Assembly: GCF_037038585.1 (NCBI RefSeq)
Contig: NC_092556.1
Coordinates: forward strand, 514,619 to 578,618
Length of the DNA: 64,000 nucleotides
Source: Patagioenas fasciata
Taxonomy: Eukaryota
Reading direction: 5' to 3'
Below are positions 2,880 through 39,096 of this stretch, one piece after another; position 1 is the stretch's first letter; each line of letters opens with the position of its first letter. Both the position numbers and the translations under genes were made by a program. The notes below the pieces were generated by a model. That model had not been told where the DNA came from. It searched no databases and worked only from the letters and a program-made list of their open reading frames with translations.

Positions 2880-3420
2880 CTGGGGACAATGGGGACAATG
2901 GGGACAATGGGTCAGGGGGGTCCCCAGGGCCCCCCAATGGCACCCAGCGGGGACCACGGTCTGGGGACAATGGGGACAATGGGGACAATGGGTCAGGGGG
3001 GTCCCCAGGGCCCCCCAATGGCACCCAGGGGGGACCACGGTCTGGGGACAATGGGGACAATGGGGACAATGGATCAGGGGGGTCCCCAGGGCCCCCCAAT
3101 GGCACCCAGGGGGGACCACGCTCTGGGGACAATGGGGACAATGGGGACAATGGGTCAGGGGGGTCCCCAGGGCCCCCCAATGGCACCCAGGGGGGACCAC
3201 GGTCTGGGGACAATGGGGACAATGGGGACAATGGGTCAGGGGGGTCCCCAGGGCCCCCCAATGGCACCCAGGGGGGACCACGCTCTGGGGACAATGGGGA
3301 CAATGGGGACAATGGGTCAGGGGGGTCCCCAGGGCCCCCCAATGGCACCCAGGGGGGACCACGCTCTGGGGACAATGGGGACAATGGGGACAATGGGTCA
3401 GGGGGGTCCCCAGGGCCCCC
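2880..3420. repeat. ~60-bp tandem repeat x9 (gggaccacggtctggggacaatggggacaatggggacaatgggtcaggggggtccccagggccccccaatggcacccag) in SPNS1 intron 9
   Basis: Nine near-identical units are read directly. The satellite abuts the exon 10 acceptor. Confidence 0.85.
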
Positions 3421-4342: not shown

Positions 4343-5092
4343 CTGGGGACAGGGTCACGGGCTCAGGGGTCACGGGGTCACTGGGGTCACGGGGTCACTG
4401 GGGTCACTGTGTCCCCATAACCCCATAAACACTTCAAACCCCATAACCCCCCATACCCCCCCACCCCCATAACCCCAATACCCCCATGACCCCATAGACC
4501 CCATAACCCCCCATACCCCCATGACCCCCATAACCCCCTATGACCCCCATACCCCCATACCCCCAACACCCCCCATACCCCCATGACCCCCATACCCCCA
4601 ACACCCCCCATACCCCCATGACCCCCATACCCCCAACACCCCCCATACCCCCATGCCCCCCATAACCCCCTATGACCCCCATACCCCCAATACCCCCATA
4701 CCCCCATGCCCCCCATAACCCCCTATGACCCCCATACCCCCAACACCCCCCATACCCCCATGACCCCCATAACCCCCTATGACCCCCATACCCCCAACAC
4801 CCCAATACCCCCCATACCCCCATGACCCCATAACCCCCTATGACCCCCATACCCCCATACCCCCATGACCCCCATAACCCCTATGACCCCCATACCCCCA
4901 ACACCCCAATACCCCCCATACCCCCATGACCCCATAACCCCCTATGACCCCCATACCCCCAACACCCCCCATACCCCCATGACCCCCATGACCCCTATGA
5001 CCCCCATACCCCCAACACCCCCCATACCCCCATGACCCCCATGACCCCCATGACCCCCATGACCCCGCGCCCCCCACGTCCCCCCCACTCAC

Positions 5093-5282: not shown

Positions 5283-6897
5283 CTGGGGGCAAAGGGCAAA
5301 GGTCAGGGGGGGTCATGGGGGTCCAGGGGGTTATGGGGGGTTATGGGGTCACGGGGTTATGGGGCTTATAGGGGGTTATAGGGGTCATGGGGGTTATGGA
5401 GGTCATGGGAGTCAGGGGGGTCATGGGGGTCATAGGGGTCGGGGGGTCATGGGGGTCATAGGGGGTCATGGGGATGTGGGGTTATGGGGTCATAGGGGGT
5501 TATGGGGGTCATGGGGGTCATAGGAGTCAGTGGGTCATGGGGGTCATAAGGGGTCATGGGGGTCATAGGGGGTCATAAGGGTCAGGGGGGTTATGGGGGT
5601 CATGGGGGTCAGGGGGTCATGGGGGTCAGGGGGTCATGGGGGTCATAGGGGGTCATGGGGGTCAGGGGGATGTGGGGTTATGGGGGTTATGGGGGTTATG
5701 GGGGTTATGGGGTCATGGGGATGGGGGTTATAGGGTCATGGGGTCATAGGGGTCACGGGTCACCCCATTATCCCAATGTCCCCATTGTCCCCATTGCCCC
5801 CATTGCCCCCATTAACCCCATTGTTCCCATTACCCCATCACCCCCATCACCCCATTGTCCCTGCTGCCCCCATTGTCCCCATTGACCCCATTATCTCAAT
5901 GTCCCCATTGCCCCCATTGTCCCCATCACCCCCATTATCCCCATCACCCCACTGTCCCCTTGACCCCCATTGTCCCCATTGCCTCCATTGGCCCCATTGG
6001 CCCGATTGTCCCATTAACCCATCATCCCCATTACCCCATTGCCCCCATTATCCCATTGCCCCCATTGTCCCATTGTCCCCATTACCCCAATGTCCCCATT
6101 GCTCCCATTGTCCCATTGCCCCCGTCACCCCCATCCCCCCATCACCCCCATTGTCCCCATCACCCCCATTGTCCCATCACCCCCATTGTCTCATCACCCC
6201 CATCACCCCCATTGTCCCCATCCCCCCCATCCCCCCCATTGTCCCCATCACCCCCATTGTCCCATTGTCCCCATCACCCCCATCACCCCCATTCCCCCAT
6301 CACCCCCATTGTCCCATCACCCCCATCGCCCCCATTGTCCCATCCCCCCCATCACCCCCATCCCCCCCATTGTCCCATCCCCCCCATCACCCCCATTGTC
6401 CCCATCCCCCCCATTGTCCCATCACCCCCATCCCCCCCATTCCCCCATCACCCCCATTGTCCCATCACCCCCATTGTCCCATCACCCCCATTGTCCCCAT
6501 CCCCCCATCACCCCCATCACCCCCATTGTCCCCATCCCCCCCATCCCCCCCATTGTCCCCATCACCCCCATTGTCCCATTGTCCCCATCACCCCCATCAC
6601 CCCCATTCCCCCATTGTCCCATTGTCCCATCACCCCCATTGTCCCATCACCCCCATTGTCCCCATCACCCCCATCACCCCCATTGTCCCATCCCCCCCAT
6701 CACCCCCATTGTCCCATTGTCCCCATCACCCCCATTGTCCCCATCCCCCCCATTGTCCCATCACCCCCATTCCCCCATCACCCCCATTGTCCCCATCCCC
6801 CCCATTGTCCCATCACCCCCATTCCCCCATCACCCCCATTGTCCCCATCCCCCCCATTGTCCCCATCCCCCCCATTGTCCCCCCCCCCCCGTGTCAC

Positions 6898-7053
6898 CTC
6901 TCGTCGCCGTGGCAGCGCGGCCCCCGCTGGCAGGGGGGCAGGGCCCCGGTGGCCACGCGGCAGCGGCGCAGGAACGCGGGGGCCCAGAGGGCGAGGGCCC
7001 CGGTGACAAAGGACACGGCGGTGAAGCCCAGCGAGGACAGCACCAGCGTGCGG
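6898..7053 (-). CDS. SPNS1: SPNS1 exon 7
   Basis: Acceptor ccgtgtcccag|C. Encodes (N)RTLVLSSLGFTAVSFVTGALALWAPAFLRRCRVATGALPPCQRGPRCHGDE(S). Donor GACGAGAG|gtgaca. Matches human NPSFVLSSLGFTAVAFVTGSLALWAPAFLLRSRVVLGETPPC. Confidence 0.85.
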
Positions 7054-9412
7054 CTGGGACACGGGGACACCCCCGTCACACCCTGGGGACACCCTGGGGA
7101 CACCCTGGGGACACCCTGGGGACACCCCCGTCACACCCTGGGGACACCCCCGTCACACCCTGGGGACACCCCCGGTGACAAAGGACACGGCGGTGAAGCC
7201 CAGCGAGGACAGCACCAGCGTGCGGCTGGGGACATGGGGACAGCCCCGTCACACCCTAGGGACACCCTGGGGACACCCTGGGGACATGGGGACACCCCTG
7301 TCACACCCCTGGGGACACCCTGGGGACACCCTGGGGACACCCCTGTCACACCCTGGGGACACCCTGGGGACACCCTGGGGACACCCCTGTCACACCCTGG
7401 GGACACCCTGGGGACACCCTGGGGACACCCCCGTCACACCCTGGGGACACCCTGGGGACACCCCCGTCACACCCTGGGGACACCCTGGGGACACCCCTGT
7501 CACACCCCATGGGACATGGGGACACCCCTGGGGACATGGGGACACCCCCTGGGGACACCAATGAAACCCTGGGGACACCGCATGGGACACGGGGACACCC
7601 CTGGGGACACCCCTGTCACACCCCATGGCACCCCATGGGACATGGGGACACCCCTGGGGACATGGGGACACCCCCAGGGACACCCCATGGGACTCGGGGA
7701 CACCCCATAGGGACACAGGGACACCCCCGGGGATGCCCCATTGCACCCCATGGGACACGAGGACACCCCCAGGGACAACCCTGGGGACATGGGGACACCC
7801 CATAGGGACACAGGGACACCCCCAGGGACACCCCATGGCACCCATGGGACACGGGGACACCCCTGGTGACACCCCATTGCACCCCATGGGACATGGGGAC
7901 ACCCCTGGGGACACCGCATGGCACCCCATGGGACACAGGGACACCCCATGGGACTCGGGGACACCCCTGGGGACACGGGGACACCCCTGGGGACACCAAT
8001 GAAACCCTGGGGGTGCCAGGTCTACCCCATGGGGACACCAGGTCTACCCAGGGGGACCTGTCCCCATGTCCCCCCATGTCCCCATGTCCCCCATGTCCCC
8101 CATTGTCCCCATATCCCCCAATCCCCCCATAGCCCCCAATCCCCCCATATCCCCATAGCCCCCAATGTCCTCACATCCCCATTGTCCCCATATCCCCCAA
8201 TGTCCCCATGTCCCCCCATAGTCCCCCATTGTCCCCGTATCCCCCAATATCCCCAATCCCCCCACATCCCCCCAATGTCCCCACATCCCCCCATGTCCCC
8301 CATTGTCCCCAATGTCCCCACATCCCCCCATGTCCCCCATTGTCCCCAATGTCCCCACATCCCCCCATGTCCCCCATTGTCCCCAATGTCCCCACATCCC
8401 CCCATGTCCCCATAGCCCCCAATGTCCCCATATCCCCCCATATCCCCAATGTCCCCAATGTCCCCCCATGTCCCCCAATCCCCCCATATCCCCCAATGTC
8501 CCCATGTCCCCCATTGTCCCCATGTCCCCATTATCCCCATAGCCCCCAATGTCCCCACATCCCCCCCTGTCCCCCATTGTCCCCATATCGCCTCATGTCC
8601 CCCTATCCCCCAATGTCCCCAATGTCCCCCATTGTCCCCATATCCCCCATTGTCCCCAATCCCCCCACATCCCCCATTGTCCCCATATCCCCCATTGTCC
8701 CCACATCCCCCCATGCCCCCCAATGTCCCCACACCCCCCAATGTCCCCCAATGTCCCCATTGTCCCCAATGTCCCCACACCCCCCAATGTCCCCATTGTC
8801 CCCATTGTCCCCATTGCCCCCATTGTCCCCAATGTCCCCAATGTCCCCAATGTCCCCATTGCCCCCATTGCCCCCAATGTCCCCAATGTCCCCATTGTCC
8901 CCAATGTCCCCAATGTCCCCACACCCCCCAATGTCCCCACACCCCCCATTGTCCCCAATGTCCCCATTGTCCCCAATGTCCCCACACCCCCCAATCCCCC
9001 CACATCCCCCAATGTCCCTCAATCCCCTCAATGTCCCCCATGTCCCCCATTGTCCCCAATCCCCCCATGCCCCCCATTGTCCCCACATCCCCCCATGCCC
9101 CCCATTGCCCCCATTGCCCCATTGCCCCCATTGTCCCCAATGTCCCCACACCTCCCAATGTCCCCATTGTCCCCACTGTCCCCACTGTCCCCAATGTCCC
9201 CATTGTCCCCAATGTCCCCAATGTCCCCAATGTCCCCCATTGTCCCCAATGTCCCCACACCCCCCAATGTCCCCATTGTCCCCACTGTCCCCACTGTCCC
9301 CAATGTCCCCATTGTCCCCGATGTCCCCAATGTCCCCACACCCCCCATTGCCCCCATTGTCCCCATTGTCCCCAATGTCCCCCAATGTCCCCAGTGTCCC
9401 CCCTGTCCTCAC

Positions 9413-9555
9413 TTGGTGGCCAGGCGGCGCAGGTCGCTGGCCCAGTGCGGGTGGGGGAGGGGCGTGGCGGGGGGCAGCTCCAGGCCCCCCCGGGGGGGGT
9501 CGCTCACCAGCGTCACCAACAGCGCCAGGGCCACCAACCCCAGCACCGGGGTCAC
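9413..9555 (-). CDS. SPNS1: SPNS1 exon 6
   Basis: Acceptor cccgtgtccccag|GTG. Encodes VTPVLGLVALALLVTLVSDPPRGGLELPPATPLPHPHWASDLRALAT(N). Donor ACCAA|gtgagg. Matches human VTPGLGVVAVLLLFLVVREPPRGAVERHSDLPPLNPTSWWADLRALAR. Confidence 0.8.
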
Positions 9556-10654
9556 CTGGGGACACGGGGGGGTCACATGGGGTCACATGGGGGGGTCACA
9601 TGGGGACGGGGGGGGCACGTGGGGGGGGGGCACGTGGGGGGGGGTCACCTGGGGACACGGGGGGGTCACCTGGGGTCACATGGGGGGGTCACATGGGGAC
9701 GGGGGGGGCACGTGGGGGGGGGTCACCTGGGGACACGGGGGGGTCACCTGGGGGGGTCACATGGGGACGGGGGGGGCACGTGGGGGGGTCACCTGGGTCA
9801 TCTGGGGACATGGGGGGGGCACGTGGGGTCACATGGGGGGGTCACATGGGGACGGGGGGGGCACGTGGGGGGGGGGTCACCTGGGGTCACCTGGGGACAC
9901 GGGGGGGGTCACATGGGGATGGGGGGGGCACGTGGGGGGGTCACCTGGGGTCACCTGGGGACATGGGGGGGGGCACGTGGGGTCACATGGGGGGGTCACC
10001 TGGGGCCACCTGGGGTCACCTGGGGACACGGGGGGGCACGTGGGGACGGGGGGGGCACGTGGGGGGGTCACCTGGGGTCATCTGGGGACATGGGGGGGGG
10101 CACGTGGGGTCACATGGGGGGGGTCACCTGGGGACATGGGGGGGTCACCTGGGGGCACCTGGGGATGGGGGGGGGGGGCACATGGGGGGGTCACCTGGGG
10201 TCACCTGGGGACATGGGGGGGCACGTGGGGGCACATGGGGACGGGGGGGGCACGTGGGGGGGGCACGTGGGGACTTGGCGGGGTCACCTGGGGTCACATG
10301 GGGACCCTGTTGAGGACACTGGGGGGGTTTGGGGACCCTGCTGGGGACACTGGGGACCCTTTTGGGGACATTGGGGGGGTTTGGGGACCCTGTTGGGGAC
10401 ACTGGGGACCCTTTTGGGGACATTGGGGGGGTTTGGGGACCCTGTTGGGGACACTGGGGGGTTTGGGGTCACTGTTGGGGACACTGATGGGGACACTGGG
10501 GACCCTGTTGGGGACACTGGGGGGGTTTGGGGACCCTGTTGGGGACCCTGTTGGGGTCACTGATGGGGACACTGGGGACACTGGGGGGGTTTGGGGACAC
10601 TGATGGGGACACTGGGGACATTGGGGCCACTGGGGCCGTGGGTCCCGGGCTCAC

Positions 10655-10721: not shown

Positions 10722-13134
10722 CTGGGGACATGGGGACAGCATGGGGACATCAGCGGGGACATGGGGACATCAGCGGGGACATGGGGACATCAGCGGGGAC
10801 ATGGGGACATTGGGGACATGGGGACATTGGGGGCAATGGGGACATGGGGACATTGGGGGCAATGGGGACATCAGCGGGGACATGGGGACATTGGGGACAT
10901 TGGGGACATTGGGGACATGGGGACAATGGGGACATTGGGGACACCATGGGGACATCAGTGGGGACACGGGGACCCCACAATCCCCACCCCCGTGTCCCCA
11001 TGTCCCCATCACCCCCATGGCCCCCAACGTCCCCATAGCCCCCATTGTCCCCAATGTCCCCACTGATGTCCCCATCACCCCCCCATGTCCCCACAACCCC
11101 CAATGTTCCCCCATGTCCCCACATCCCCCCACAACCCCCAATGTCCCTCTGTCCCTCAATGTCCCCATGTCCCCCCACATCCCCAATGTCCCCATTGCCC
11201 CCAATGTCCCATCACCGCCATTGTCCCCAATGTCCCCAATGTCCCCATCACCCCCATCACCCCCATTGTCCCCACTGCCCCCATTGTCCCCATTGCCCCC
11301 AATGCCCCCATTGTGCCCAATACCCCCCACCGCCCCCATTGACCCCCATATTCCCCCAATGTCCCCATTGTTCCCGTCACCCCCACCACCCCCAATGTCC
11401 CCAATGCCCCCAATGTCCCCCCTCCCCCATCACCCCCATTGTCCCCATCACCCCATCCCCCCATTGCCCCCACTGCCCCCATCCCCCCCCACCCCCATCC
11501 CCCCCATCCCTCTCACCGCCCCATCCCCCCATTGCCCCCCATCCCCCCCAATGTCCCCACGTCCCCCATCCCCCCCCCATCCCCCCATCCCCCCCACTGC
11601 CCCCATTGCCCCCCCCACCCCCATCCCCCCCCCCACCCCCAATGCCCCCATTGTCCCCATCCCCCCCATCACCCCCATCCCCCCATTGTCCCCATCCCCC
11701 CCACCACCCCCATCCCCCCATTGCCCCCATTGCCCCCATTGTCCCCCATTACCCCCCCACCCCCATCCCCCCATCCCCCCCACTGCCCCCATCCCCCCCC
11801 CACCCCCATCCCCCCCATTGCCCCCATTGCCCCCCATCCCCCCCACTGCCCCCATCCCTCCCCCACCCCCATCCCCCCATTGCCCCCATTGCCCCCCATC
11901 CCCCCCACTGCCCCCATCCCCCCCACCACCCCCATCCCCCCATTGCCCCCATTGTCCCCCATTACCCCCCCACCCCCATCCCCCCCAATGTCCCCATTGT
12001 CCCCATTGCCCCATCCCCCCCCACCCCCATCCCCCCAATGTCCCCAATGCCCCCATCCCCCCATTGCCCCCAATGTTCCCATTGCCCCCCATTACCCCCC
12101 CACCCCCATCCCCCCCAATGTCCCCATGTCCCCCATCCCCCCCCACCCCCATCCCCCCATTACCCCCAATGTCCCCATTGCCCCCTCACCCCCAATGTCC
12201 TCATCCCCCCATTGTCCCCATCCCCCCAATGTCCCCATTGCCCCCAATGTCCCCATCCCCCTCCCCACCCCCATCTCCCCCATTGTTCCCAATGTCCCCA
12301 TCCCCCCCATCCCCCTCCCCCTCCCCCCCATCCCCCCCATTGCACCCCCCACCCCCATCCCCCCATCCCCCCCATTGCCCCCATCCCCCTCAATGCCCCC
12401 ATTGTCCCCATCCCCCCCCCCACCCCCATCCCCCCCAATGCCCCCAATGTCCCCATGCCCCCATCACTCCCATCCCCCCATCCCCCCCATTGCCCCCCCC
12501 ACCCCCATCCCCCCAATGCCCCCAATGTCCCCATCCCCCCCCATCCCCCTCCCCCTCCCCCCCATCCCCCCCATTGCACCCCCCACCCCCATCCCCCCAT
12601 TGTCCCCATTGCCCCCCATTACCCCCCCACCCCCATCCTGCCCAATGTCCCCATCCCCCCCCACCCCCATCCCCCCATTACCCCCAACGTCCCCATTGCC
12701 CCCTCACCCCCATTGCCCCCATCCCCCCCCAACCCCCCCAATGTCCCCCTCCCCCCCCATCACTCCCATCCCCCCATTGCCCCCATTGCCCCCCATTGCC
12801 CCCCACCCCTATCCCCCCCATTGCTCCCAATGTCCCCATCCCCCCCCCCCTCCCCCCCATCCCCCCATTGCCCCCCATCCCCCCCAATGTCCCCACGTCC
12901 CCCATCCCCCCACCACCCCCATCCCCCCCCCCACCCCCATTGCCCCCATTGTCCCCATCCCCCCACCCCCCCCATCCCCCCACCCCCCCCACCGCCCCAT
13001 CCCCCCACCGCCCCCATCCCCCCCATCCCCCCATCCCCCCCATTACCCCCAATGTCCCCCCCCATCCCCACCCCCCCACTGTCCCCATCCCCCCCACTGT
13101 CCCCCATCCCCCCCCCCAATGTCCCCGCTGTCAC

Positions 13135-17300: not shown

Positions 17301-17619
17301 TCAGACCCACACGTGTGGGGCACTATGGGGCAGAGCTGTCTGCAGGAGCTCTATGGGGGTGATGTGTGGGTCAGCCCCACACGTGTGGGGCGCTATGGGG
17401 CAGAGCTGTCTGCAGGAGCTCTATGGGGGTGATGTGTGGGTCAGCCCCACACGTGTGGGGCGCTATGGGGCAGACCTGTCTGCAGGAGCTCTATGGGGGG
17501 GTGATGTGTGGGTCAGCCCCACACGTGTGGGGCGCTATGGGGCAGAGCTGTCTGCAGGAGCTCTATGGGGGGGTGATGTGTGGGTCAGCCCCACACGTGT
17601 GGGGCGCTATGGGGCAGAC

Positions 17620-18463: not shown

Positions 18464-18659
18464 CAGCCAGTGTGAACCGGTCCATGTAGTTGAGCAGGTT
18501 GACGTAGCACAGCACGGCCAGCGTGCGCCGGGGCGCCGTGGGGCCGCTATGGGGCGCTGTGGGGCCGCTATGGGGCGCCGTGGGGCTGGGGGGGGCGCTG
18601 TGGGGCAGCCCCTCCCCCCCCGTGTCGTCCGCGCGGTGAAGGAGCGGCCCCGACGCCAT
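18464..18659 (-). CDS. SPNS1: SPNS1 exon 1 (start codon)
   Basis: ATG is the reverse complement of plus 18657-18659, in the context ccccATGG. Encodes MASGPLLHRADDTGGEGLPHSAPPSPTAPHSGPTAPHSGPTAPRRTLAVLCYVNLLNYMDRFTLA(G). Donor CTGGCTG|gtgggg. Matches human ...RSALIVAVLCYINLLNYMDRFTVAG. There is no in-frame stop upstream, so the start codon is inferred from homology and context. Confidence 0.7.
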
Positions 18660-25502: not shown

Positions 25503-26554
25503 GTCCGGGGGGCGCTATGGGGCGCTATGGGGTGCTATGGGGCACTATGGGGTGCTATGGGGCGCTATGGGGCGCTATGGGGTGCTATGGGGCGCTATGG
25601 GGCGGTGTGGGGCACAGGGGGGCTGGGGTCCTCTATGGGGCCAGGGGGCACTTGGGGGGCTGGGGGGGGGGTCAATATGTGGGGTTGGGGGGGAGTTATG
25701 GGGCACTTGGGGGTCGATGTGTGGGGCTCGGGGGTCTGGGAGGGTCACTTGTGGGTCACTTATGGGTCAGTGTGTGGGTCTGGGGGGTCACTTATGGGTC
25801 TGGGAGGGTCACTTGTGGGTCACTTATGGGTCAATGTGTGGGTCGGGGGTCACTTATGGGTCTGGAGGGTCACTTATGGGTCACTTATGGGTCAACGTGT
25901 GGGTCTGGGGGGGGGGTCACTTATGGGTCTGGGAGGGTCACTTGTGGGTCACTTATGGGTCAATGTGTGGGTTTGTGGTCACTTATGGGTCTGGGAGGGT
26001 CACTTATGGGTCAACGTGTGGGTCTGGGGGGGTCACTTATGGGTCAATGTGTGGGTCCATGGGATCACTTATGGGTCTGGGAGGGTCAGTTATGGGTCTG
26101 AGAGGGTCACTTGTGGGTCAATGTGTGGGTCGGGGGTCACTTATGGGTCAAGGTGTGGGTCTGGGGGGTCTGGGAGGGTCACTTATGGGTCACTTATGGG
26201 TCAGTGTGTGGGTCGGGGGTCACTTATGGGTCTGGGAGGGTCACTTATGGGTCACTTATGGGTCAATGTGTGGGTCTGGGGTCACTTATGGGTCAATGTG
26301 TGGGTCTGGGGTCACTTATGGGTCAACGTGTGGGTCTGGGGGGGTCACTTGCGGGTGAATGTGTGGGTCGGGGATCACTTATGGGTCACCTATGGGTCGA
26401 CGTGTGGGTCTGGGGGGGTCACTTATGGGTCAATGTGTGGGTCTATGGTCACTTACGGGTCCCTTATGTCCCCCCAGCCCCCCCCCGCGCCCCCGTTCCC
26501 CCTCCCCCCGGCCCCTCCCCCGCTGCCCGGTGCCCTCCCCCGGCGGCTGCTGAG

Positions 26555-38400: not shown

Positions 38401-38407
38401 CACCCAC

Positions 38408-39096
38408 CTGGAGAAGCTCTTCCCGCAGTGGCTGCACCCGTAGGGCTTGTGCACGGCCCCGTCGTGCGAGCGCACGTGGTGGCTCATCCTGTCCTTACGC
38501 TTGAAGCGCTGCTGGCACACGGGGCACTGGTGGGGCTTCTCGTCCGAGTGGGACAACTGGTGCCTCTTCAGGTGGTAGACGTCCCGAAACGCCTTCCCGC
38601 ACATCTCGCACGCGTGGTTCTTCCTCCCGCGTCCCCCTTTATTCCCTCCCCCCGCCGCCCCCGTCCCCTCCAAGGCGGCGGCCGAGACGCTCAACAGGCT
38701 CAAGGGGACCATGGTTGGCATCTTCATGGCGGCGTTGCCGGCCCCCTGGGGGACGTTGGTGGCCTTGTGGGTGGCCTGGTGGCGTCGGAGGTTGTAGCCG
38801 TTCTTGAACTCCTTGGCGCAAAGGGCGCAGACGTGGGGGCCTTTGGATTTGGATTTGCGGGGGGGGTCCGGGGTGGGGGTGGTGGGGGGTTGGGGTTGGG
38901 CGGGGGGTTGGGGTGGTGGGGGTGGGGGTGGGGGTGGGGGAGGGGAAGGGCCCGGCGGGGGTTTGAGGGCGGCGGCGTCGACGGTGGGGGCGGGGGAGGG
39001 GGTGGGGGAGGGGGAGGGGGGGGCGGGGGGGAGGACGGGGAGGAGGTCGACGGGGAGGGGGGAGGGGTCGGGGGGGGGGGGAGGGGCGGCGGCGGC
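38408..39096 (-). CDS. MAZ: MAZ large exon (proline-rich N-terminal region plus ZF1-ZF3)
   Basis: Candidate acceptor tttcccccccacag|GCC at 39097-39098, with an in-frame TAA 8 codons upstream. Encodes [228 protein letters not shown](R). Donor TCTCCAG|gtgggt. Matches human MAZ ...PLQVDLLPVL...STVDTAALKQPP...KSKGPYICALCAKEFKNGYNLRRHEAIH...AMKMPTMVPLSLLS...HACEMCGKAFRDVYHLNRHKLSHSDEKPYQCPVCQQRFKRKDRMSYHVRSHDGAVHKPYNCSHCGKSFSR. The first coding exon (start ATG) was not located. Confidence 0.75.

Follow-up and report, generated by a model that had tools for sequence, protein, structure and literature searches.

A second copy of the start of SPNS1 exon 7 in a satellite-filled pigeon intron: a probable case of exon stuttering

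We analysed a 64,000-nucleotide stretch of DNA from the band-tailed pigeon (Patagioenas fasciata; contig NC_092556.1, positions 514,619 to 578,618), hereafter the window, which carries the gene SPNS1 on its minus strand. In intron 6 of this gene, the acceptor and the 5' part of exon 7 are present a second time, in direct orientation and without a single difference, within a tandemly repeated satellite. We consider this copy to be very probably an instance of exon stuttering, a form of local repeat instability of avian dot-chromosome genes. It most likely arose by a recent duplication via short sequence homology, as suggested by the G-run direct repeats found on either side of its junction.

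The longest exact direct repeat between positions 6850 and 7300 is 61 nt long and occurs at 6998-7058 and at 7170-7230, with an offset of 172 nt. On the minus strand, this repeat is the acceptor of SPNS1 exon 7 (cccag) followed by the first 56 nucleotides of the exon (7053-6898). Both copies read (c)cccag^C CGC ACG ... GTC ACC GGG G (a caret marks a splice boundary or a break), i.e. an acceptor plus (N)RTLVLSSLGFTAVSFVTG, as had been proposed in an earlier sequence-only reading of the window. That reading described the 5' part of exon 7 and its acceptor as duplicated in the flanking satellite, at about 7005-7058 and 7171-7228; these limits are right within a few bases, and the near-identity that it expected turned out to be complete (61 identical positions out of 61). 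The 52-nt core that is specific to the exon has exactly two occurrences in the window, according to both blastn-short and nhmmer. When exon 7 was compared with intron 6 by blastn-short, the match extended over 56 nt with 100% identity and scored 111 bits, against a best score of 38.2 bits in a control made of 20 shuffles of every intron. The repeat is therefore not due to chance.

The true exon 7 (6898-7053, minus strand) is 156 nt long, between an acceptor AG at 7055-7054 and a donor GT at 6897-6896, and its translation gives (N)RTLVLSSLGFTAVSFVTGALALWAPAFLRRCRVATGALPPCQRGPRCHGDE(S), with the GT donor just after it. The source segment of the repeat (6998-7058, minus strand) comprises five intron nucleotides (cccag) and exon nt 1-56. 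The stuttered copy, or pseudo-exon (7170-7230, minus strand), has the acceptor ccccag and the same 56 exon nucleotides, 100% identical to the source, and ends at ACCGGGG^GTGTCCCC. In transcript order, the copy (7230-7170) is found upstream of the true exon 7, within intron 6 and on the same strand. The pseudo-exon had been called downstream, a term that suits plus-strand coordinates only, since the gene lies on the minus strand and the copy precedes the true exon in the transcript.

The gene and the exon number named in the sequence-only reading are both correct. The best match of the exon 7 peptide among solved structures in the PDB is human SPNS1 (9boi_A, E = 7.6e-15), SPNS2 chains being found at about 1e-6. 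A protein search gave as best match the protein spinster homolog 1 isoform X2 of Patagioenas fasciata, with about 100% identity to the exons of the window. The gene model has 12 coding exons, all on the minus strand and all bounded by AG/GT: exons 1 to 6 at 18659-18464, 17685-17620, 14879-14743, 13286-13135, 10721-10655 and 9555-9413, and exons 7 to 12 at 7053-6898, 5282-5093, 4342-4277, 2879-2781, 2083-1915 and 220-129. Its spliced translation is exactly that of RefSeq isoform X1 (P0121, XP_071657412.1), and the model without exon 10 is exactly isoform X2 (P0001, XP_071657413.1). The window therefore contains P. fasciata SPNS1, and exon 7, the seventh of 12, is unaltered in its coding sequence.

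The copy is embedded in a GGGGACACCCT satellite array of intron 6 (7063-7612), for which Tandem Repeats Finder (TRF) reports 50.9 copies of period 11 and, over 7089-7496, a higher-order period of 44 nt. According to TRF, tandem repeats cover 97% of intron 6 (7054-9412), 86-100% of each of the 11 introns and 90% of the whole window. We counted 34 non-repeat islands of at least 60 nt in the window and, within 1-19 kb, these correspond nearly one-to-one to the exons of SPNS1. The spacer between the copy and the true exon (7059-7169, minus strand) is indeed made of satellite units, as the earlier reading had it, with 111 nt of 11-nt GGGGACACCCT units. It combines 11-nt (GGGTGTCCCCA) and 22-nt (GGGTGTGACGGGGGTGTCCCCA) units and ends in the acceptor-proximal tract gacGGGGG^TGTCCCCGTGTCCCAG. 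Taken as 116 nt, this spacer resolves into a 16-nt tract and nine 11-nt units (TGTCCCC + 9 x 11 nt + GTGTCCCAG) and includes six acceptor-like GTGTCCCCAG units. The acceptor of the copy, reported as intact, is thus present and unremarkable, the spacer being wholly composed of such units. The idea that the repeat unit of the satellite had captured the start of the exon did not hold: there is a single extra copy, and a larger unit, made of the acceptor tract and 56 exon nucleotides, is duplicated within or beside the array. In addition, canonical G-quadruplex (G4) motifs are found on the plus strand between the two copies (7085-7121) and just past them (7259-7291). A G-quadruplex-prone tandem array of about 700 nt, with G-runs on the minus strand, occupies the start of intron 7 right after the exon 7 donor (6197-6890; G4 scan and TRF rows 6010-6890).

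Exon stuttering was described in chicken by Hron et al. (Genome Biol Evol 2026, PMC12954441) as a subset of 'sequence stuttering', in which the lateral portion of an exon, splice site included, is found again in the neighbouring intron. Their study reports 115 genes and 236 introns, of which 190 are on dot chromosomes, with an exon part of 20-187 nt (median 36) and 1-44 copies (median 4). In over 90% of the chicken cases, at most one base separates the source from the exon border, and the stuttered introns show heavy repeat cover and strong length polymorphism. Chicken SPNS1, on the dot chromosome chr38, is shown in a panel of the supplementary file, and the main text places the 115 genes in Fig. 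S5. We replicated the published screen (blastn-short, at least 20 nt and more than 42.1 bits, a value taken from the shuffled-intron control of the paper, in the adjacent intron), and it recovered the exon 7 copy (111 bits) as well as two copies of the 3' end of exon 10. The exon 7 copy begins at exon nt 1 and spans the acceptor cccag. Exon nt 1-56 are repeated on the same strand in the adjacent intron, 172 nt upstream, the host intron is repeat-rich over almost its entire length (97%), and the coding exon is intact in a model identical to XP_071657412.1.

The junction of the copy can be read at the level of the base. The intron just before the true acceptor has the sequence gtgacGGGGG^TGTCCCCGTGTCCCAG. 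Where the break falls, the sequence is gtcaccGGGG^CCCTCG in the exon and gtcaccGGGG^GTGTCCCC in the copy. The duplicated unit (TGTCCCC...CAG plus exon nt 1-56) is flanked by near-identical direct repeats, ACGGGGG and ACCGGGG, the first preceding the tract (gACGGGGG) and the second located at exon nt 50-56 (cACCGGGG). Because these repeats bracket the unit, their out-of-register pairing would yield exactly the junction observed, ACCGGGG^GTGTCCCC. The acceptor-proximal pyrimidine tract and exon nt 1-56 would in this way have been duplicated, in direct orientation, into intron 6, the pairing taking place during replication slippage, unequal exchange or misaligned strand invasion in repair. We infer this molecular mechanism from the sequence only. 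For chicken, the mechanism proposed by Hron et al. is likewise speculative, either repair linked to G4 and replication stress or misaligned meiotic gene conversion (PMC12954441). Since the copy is identical to its source at all 61 positions and carries Patagioenas-specific bases, the duplication would be recent and lineage-specific.

Several observations weigh against exon stuttering by such an event. Only one additional copy of the exon 7 start occurs in the window, the lowest number in the published range, and single copies were flagged by Hron et al. as a possible early stage or as the outcome of another process (PMC12954441). The location on a dot chromosome is deduced only from the chicken orthologue (chr38) and from a P. 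fasciata contig of 2.1 Mb. Moreover, the satellite on the side of the copy has no specific similarity to that of the true exon: the segment flanking the copy (7231-7341) scores 82-83 of 111 against the segment flanking the true exon (7059-7169), compared with 87 for another position of the array, a comparison of little power in an array that is highly homogeneous. We therefore dropped the hypothesis of a clean recent 172-nt tandem duplication, as other positions of the array resemble the flank of the true exon at least as closely as the flank of the copy does. In view of this dissimilarity, a simple duplication of this kind lacks direct support and would need array turnover, a short-patch event or spacer expansion. 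Three routes would fit: a duplication of about 72 nt followed by expansion of the spacer, a short-patch misaligned repair, or a 172-nt duplication combined with fast turnover of the array.

Outside the exon part, the alignment of the two units has 8 mismatches and 3 indels, compared with 0 differences out of 61 in the exon part. We also considered this difference (0/61 vs. about 11/111) as evidence for selection or gene conversion, and rejected it as not significant, the exon being constrained and satellites mutating faster. The same alignment bears on the quality of the assembly. A perfectly identical copy, in a region that is 90% tandem repeat and G4-prone, could be a false local duplication created in a satellite that is hard to sequence; Hron et al. 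cautioned that local variation may stem from sequencing or assembly (PMC12954441), and the Columba livia assembly shows frameshifts in SPNS1. Such an artefact would however be expected to duplicate exactly, whereas the 172-nt units differ outside the exon part. In addition, independent assemblies of two other species contain a similar copy at the same exon, and 172 nt is far below the length of long reads. An assembly error is hence hardly credible here.

We then examined the orthologous SPNS1 loci of Caloenas nicobarica, Columba livia, Ammospiza caudacuta, Grus, Guaruba and ostrich, retrieved by exact protein look-up. These six loci consist of 71-87% tandem repeat. No extra copy of exon 7 was found in the SPNS1 loci of Caloenas nicobarica, Grus or Guaruba, where it is single-copy. 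In C. livia, two copies of the exon 7 start are present upstream of the exon, both decaying, in units of 237 and 304 nt that are 95% identical through a unique spacer. Copy B (11989-12041 of the GCA_036013475.2 locus) breaks at gtgaccggg^ggtgtccc, the same place as in Patagioenas, and has undergone a 3-nt deletion and two CpG-to-TpG/CpA changes, while copy A has an internal deletion. The sparrow A. caudacuta has at least three copies of the exon 7 start, two full and one truncated, in addition to older degenerate ones. Its full copies are identical to each other and diverge from their own true exon at 10 of 55 positions, with a junction (gtcacggg^tgtccccaaaccc, i.e. ACGGG^TGTCCCC) at most one base from the pigeon break. 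The break GGG(G)^(G)TGTCCC at the same position of the exon is common to Patagioenas, C. livia and Ammospiza.

This shared break (nt 55-56, followed by (G)TGTCCC) could be explained by one old duplication, in the common ancestor shared by Columba and Patagioenas, or as far back as that of Neoaves, kept exon-like by gene conversion and lost in some lineages. The absence of any difference over 61 positions, followed by four differences in the next 35 nt or so, also resembles the edge of a conversion tract. However, the copy of each species bears its own derived exon bases (TCC/ACC/GTC in Patagioenas; ACG>ATG, GCC and GTG in C. livia), and the spacers are not the same. A 21-mer array of GGTAGACC is part of the C. 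livia unit; in Patagioenas, this motif is located about 1 kb upstream (8009-8048), outside the 172-nt unit. The sparrow spacer is AT-rich. Because of these species-specific bases and distinct spacers, we rate a single ancestral origin below independent events, and find it rather unlikely. Moreover, Caloenas, Grus and Guaruba have no copy, and conversion from the exon cannot maintain, for tens of millions of years, the part of the junction that lies outside the exon. The recurrence of the break site is accounted for by direct GGGG repeats, and the chicken study reports independent expansions in each species as well as polymorphism within populations (PMC12954441). Judging from these alignments, equivalent duplications most likely arose separately in C. 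livia and in the sparrow.

Other SPNS1 exon edges are also repeated in these birds. Caloenas has 8 extra copies of the 3' end of exon 3 (SALWSGATLASSFVPRQ; locus 5288-6386), ostrich has 3 extra copies of the 5' part of exon 3 (locus 2215-2596), and the sparrow has copies of both the 3' end of exon 3 and the 5' end of exon 7 (locus 4366-5063 and 9447-10225).

Next, we considered the consequences of the copy for splicing. The acceptor contexts are nearly alike, ggggctgtccccatgtccccag^C for the copy and gggggtgtccccgtgtcccag^C for the true exon. Past exon nt 56, the copy continues with GTGTCCCCAGGGTGTGA..., and read-through gives RTLVLSSLGFTAVSFVTGGVPRV followed by a stop, after 23 codons. The use of the copy acceptor together with the real donor would add 172 nt; the protein is then predicted to be cut short at residue 277, and nonsense-mediated decay (NMD) would presumably follow. 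Three in-frame GTs precede the stop within the 172 nt, with pseudo-exon lengths of 15 and 39 nt (both very weak) and of 69 nt. The sole GT with a donor-like intron side is GGT^GTGACG, which gives the 69-nt pseudo-exon, a mini-intron of 103 nt and an in-frame insertion of 23 amino acids.

The acceptor context close to that of the real exon, the 61 unchanged positions and the in-frame insertion allowed by GGT^GTGACG could point to a functional alternative or poison exon, or to a regulatory decoy acceptor tuning SPNS1 expression. Moreover, the C. livia model XP_064900342.1 includes copy B as a 74-nt exon (11989-12062). This model is nevertheless a LOW QUALITY PROTEIN in which copy B is read in a shifted frame (QPHAGAVLGLHGHGLCDRGCPYRYTG) that compensates a frameshift inside exon 6, and its exon 4 likewise differs from the protein by an indel; these anomalies are likely annotation or assembly problems due to repeats. 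In P. fasciata, the acceptor of the copy is used in neither of the two annotated RefSeq isoforms, both of which take the true acceptor, and the default read-through reaches a stop. The lack of changes over 61 positions is not significant either, as we estimate that about two would be expected under the constraint of the true exon (P of about 0.1). Finally, the copies of C. livia and of the sparrow are decaying (CpG transitions, a 3-nt deletion, truncations, 10/55 divergence) and three birds have none, a pattern that speaks for neutral decay and shows no purifying selection. With no copy in Caloenas, Grus or Guaruba, and decaying copies in C. livia and Ammospiza, the sequence does not have the conservation of a conserved poison exon. 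We thus regard a function in splicing as highly improbable. The copy is most likely a neutral by-product, and its only plausible activity would be that of one more decoy 3' splice site.

A broader view would make the start of exon 7 a sequence-programmed hotspot. In this case, the conserved G-run of the Thr-Gly codons (ACC/ACG GGG) and that of the intron before the TGTCCCC tract would serve as direct repeats, and a unit of about 72 nt would have been repeatedly and independently duplicated in pigeons and passerines. The 11/22-nt satellite that precedes the exon (CAG-GGTGTGAC-GGGGGTGTCCCC-AG) would perhaps be the collapsed remnant of former exon stutters, which may have decayed by internal deletion in the way of copy A of C. 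livia and of the older copies of the sparrow, and the decoys might lower productive SPNS1 splicing to a measurable degree. We hold this extended scenario to be distinctly unlikely.

Exon 7 is not the only stuttered exon of SPNS1 in Patagioenas. The last 36 nt of exon 10 (2879-2781) and its donor are repeated downstream on the minus strand at 2723-2688 (100% identity) and 2631-2596 (97%). The first of these extra donors would add 93 nt in frame (31 amino acids), while the second meets a stop. Exon 10 is also the exon skipped in RefSeq isoform X2. Shorter exon edges recur as well: the exon 10 acceptor with 12-20 exon nucleotides is found 6 times with a spacing of 81 nt (2949-3377), the exon 2 donor with 16 exon nucleotides 4 times with a period of about 70 (17323-17561), and the exon 6 acceptor with 8 exon nucleotides 14 times (9641-10221). 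These stutters of exon 2, exon 6 and the exon 10 acceptor all fall under the 20-nt threshold of the published screen.

In the N-terminal coding part of exon 1 (18530-18606), we observed a short in-frame tandem repeat of the PTAPHSG type, 80-84% similar to an array at 25505-25628, about 7 kb away and beyond the gene; this hints that repeat sequence is also present inside coding DNA here. Elsewhere in the window, a non-repeat island on the minus strand (38407-38856) contains an open frame that encodes a C2H2 zinc finger (...KSKGPHVCALCAKEFKNGYNLRRHQATH...AMKMPTMVPLSLLSV), a match confirmed against solved structures. This frame may resemble MAZ.

These results provide a base-resolved case of exon stuttering outside chicken, with a readable junction that has a G-run direct repeat on each side. 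This exon edge is affected in two pigeon genera and in a passerine, most likely independently. Together, this junction and its recurrence turn a mechanism given as unknown into a testable hypothesis of short-homology misalignment. SPNS1 is saturated with repeats in all the sampled ostrich, crane, parrot, pigeon and sparrow loci. In addition, gene prediction is misled by stuttered exon fragments whose splice sites are intact, and one such fragment is included in the C. livia SPNS1 model. The base-level junction, the recurrent break, the apparently neutral decay of the copies and the misannotation of copy B in C. livia are the additions of the present analysis.

Several known systems can be compared with this copy. 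With cryptic or duplicated 3' splice sites leading to NMD, it shares an additional acceptor, as strong as the real one and upstream of it, whose use would insert 172 nt with a premature stop; here, this outcome is only predicted, and the acceptor is one decoy among dozens of acceptor-like GTGTCCCCAG units in the intron. With tandem exon duplications, which generate mutually exclusive or alternative exons, it shares a local exon duplication in direct orientation. Such duplications involve a whole exon, both splice sites and a compatible frame, whereas the copy has 56 of 156 nt, no cognate donor and a broken frame, and is therefore not a usable exon. Microhomology-mediated duplication and unequal exchange in minisatellites, including slippage and polymerase-theta end joining at G4, are among the candidates of Hron et al. 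The G-run junction (ACCGGGG in the exon, ACGGGGG in the intron), the flanking G4 motifs and a surrounding array that changes in whole 11-nt units are alike, the mechanism proposed here being read from the sequence. The closest system is the exon stuttering of chicken (e.g. PHF8 intron 18), which has in common with our case a lateral exon part with its splice site, the direct orientation, a repeat-saturated intron and an intact exon. The 56-nt exon part is within the 20-187 nt of chicken, and the gene is the same in another bird, with one copy in the pigeon against a median of 4 in chicken. The exon 7 copy is thus one more member of a class described in 2026, found in a gene that the chicken study already lists, and represents no new kind of element. 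Hron et al. screened chicken alone and considered other birds in passing, whereas in the pigeon the junction is resolved to the base and recurs in three lineages.

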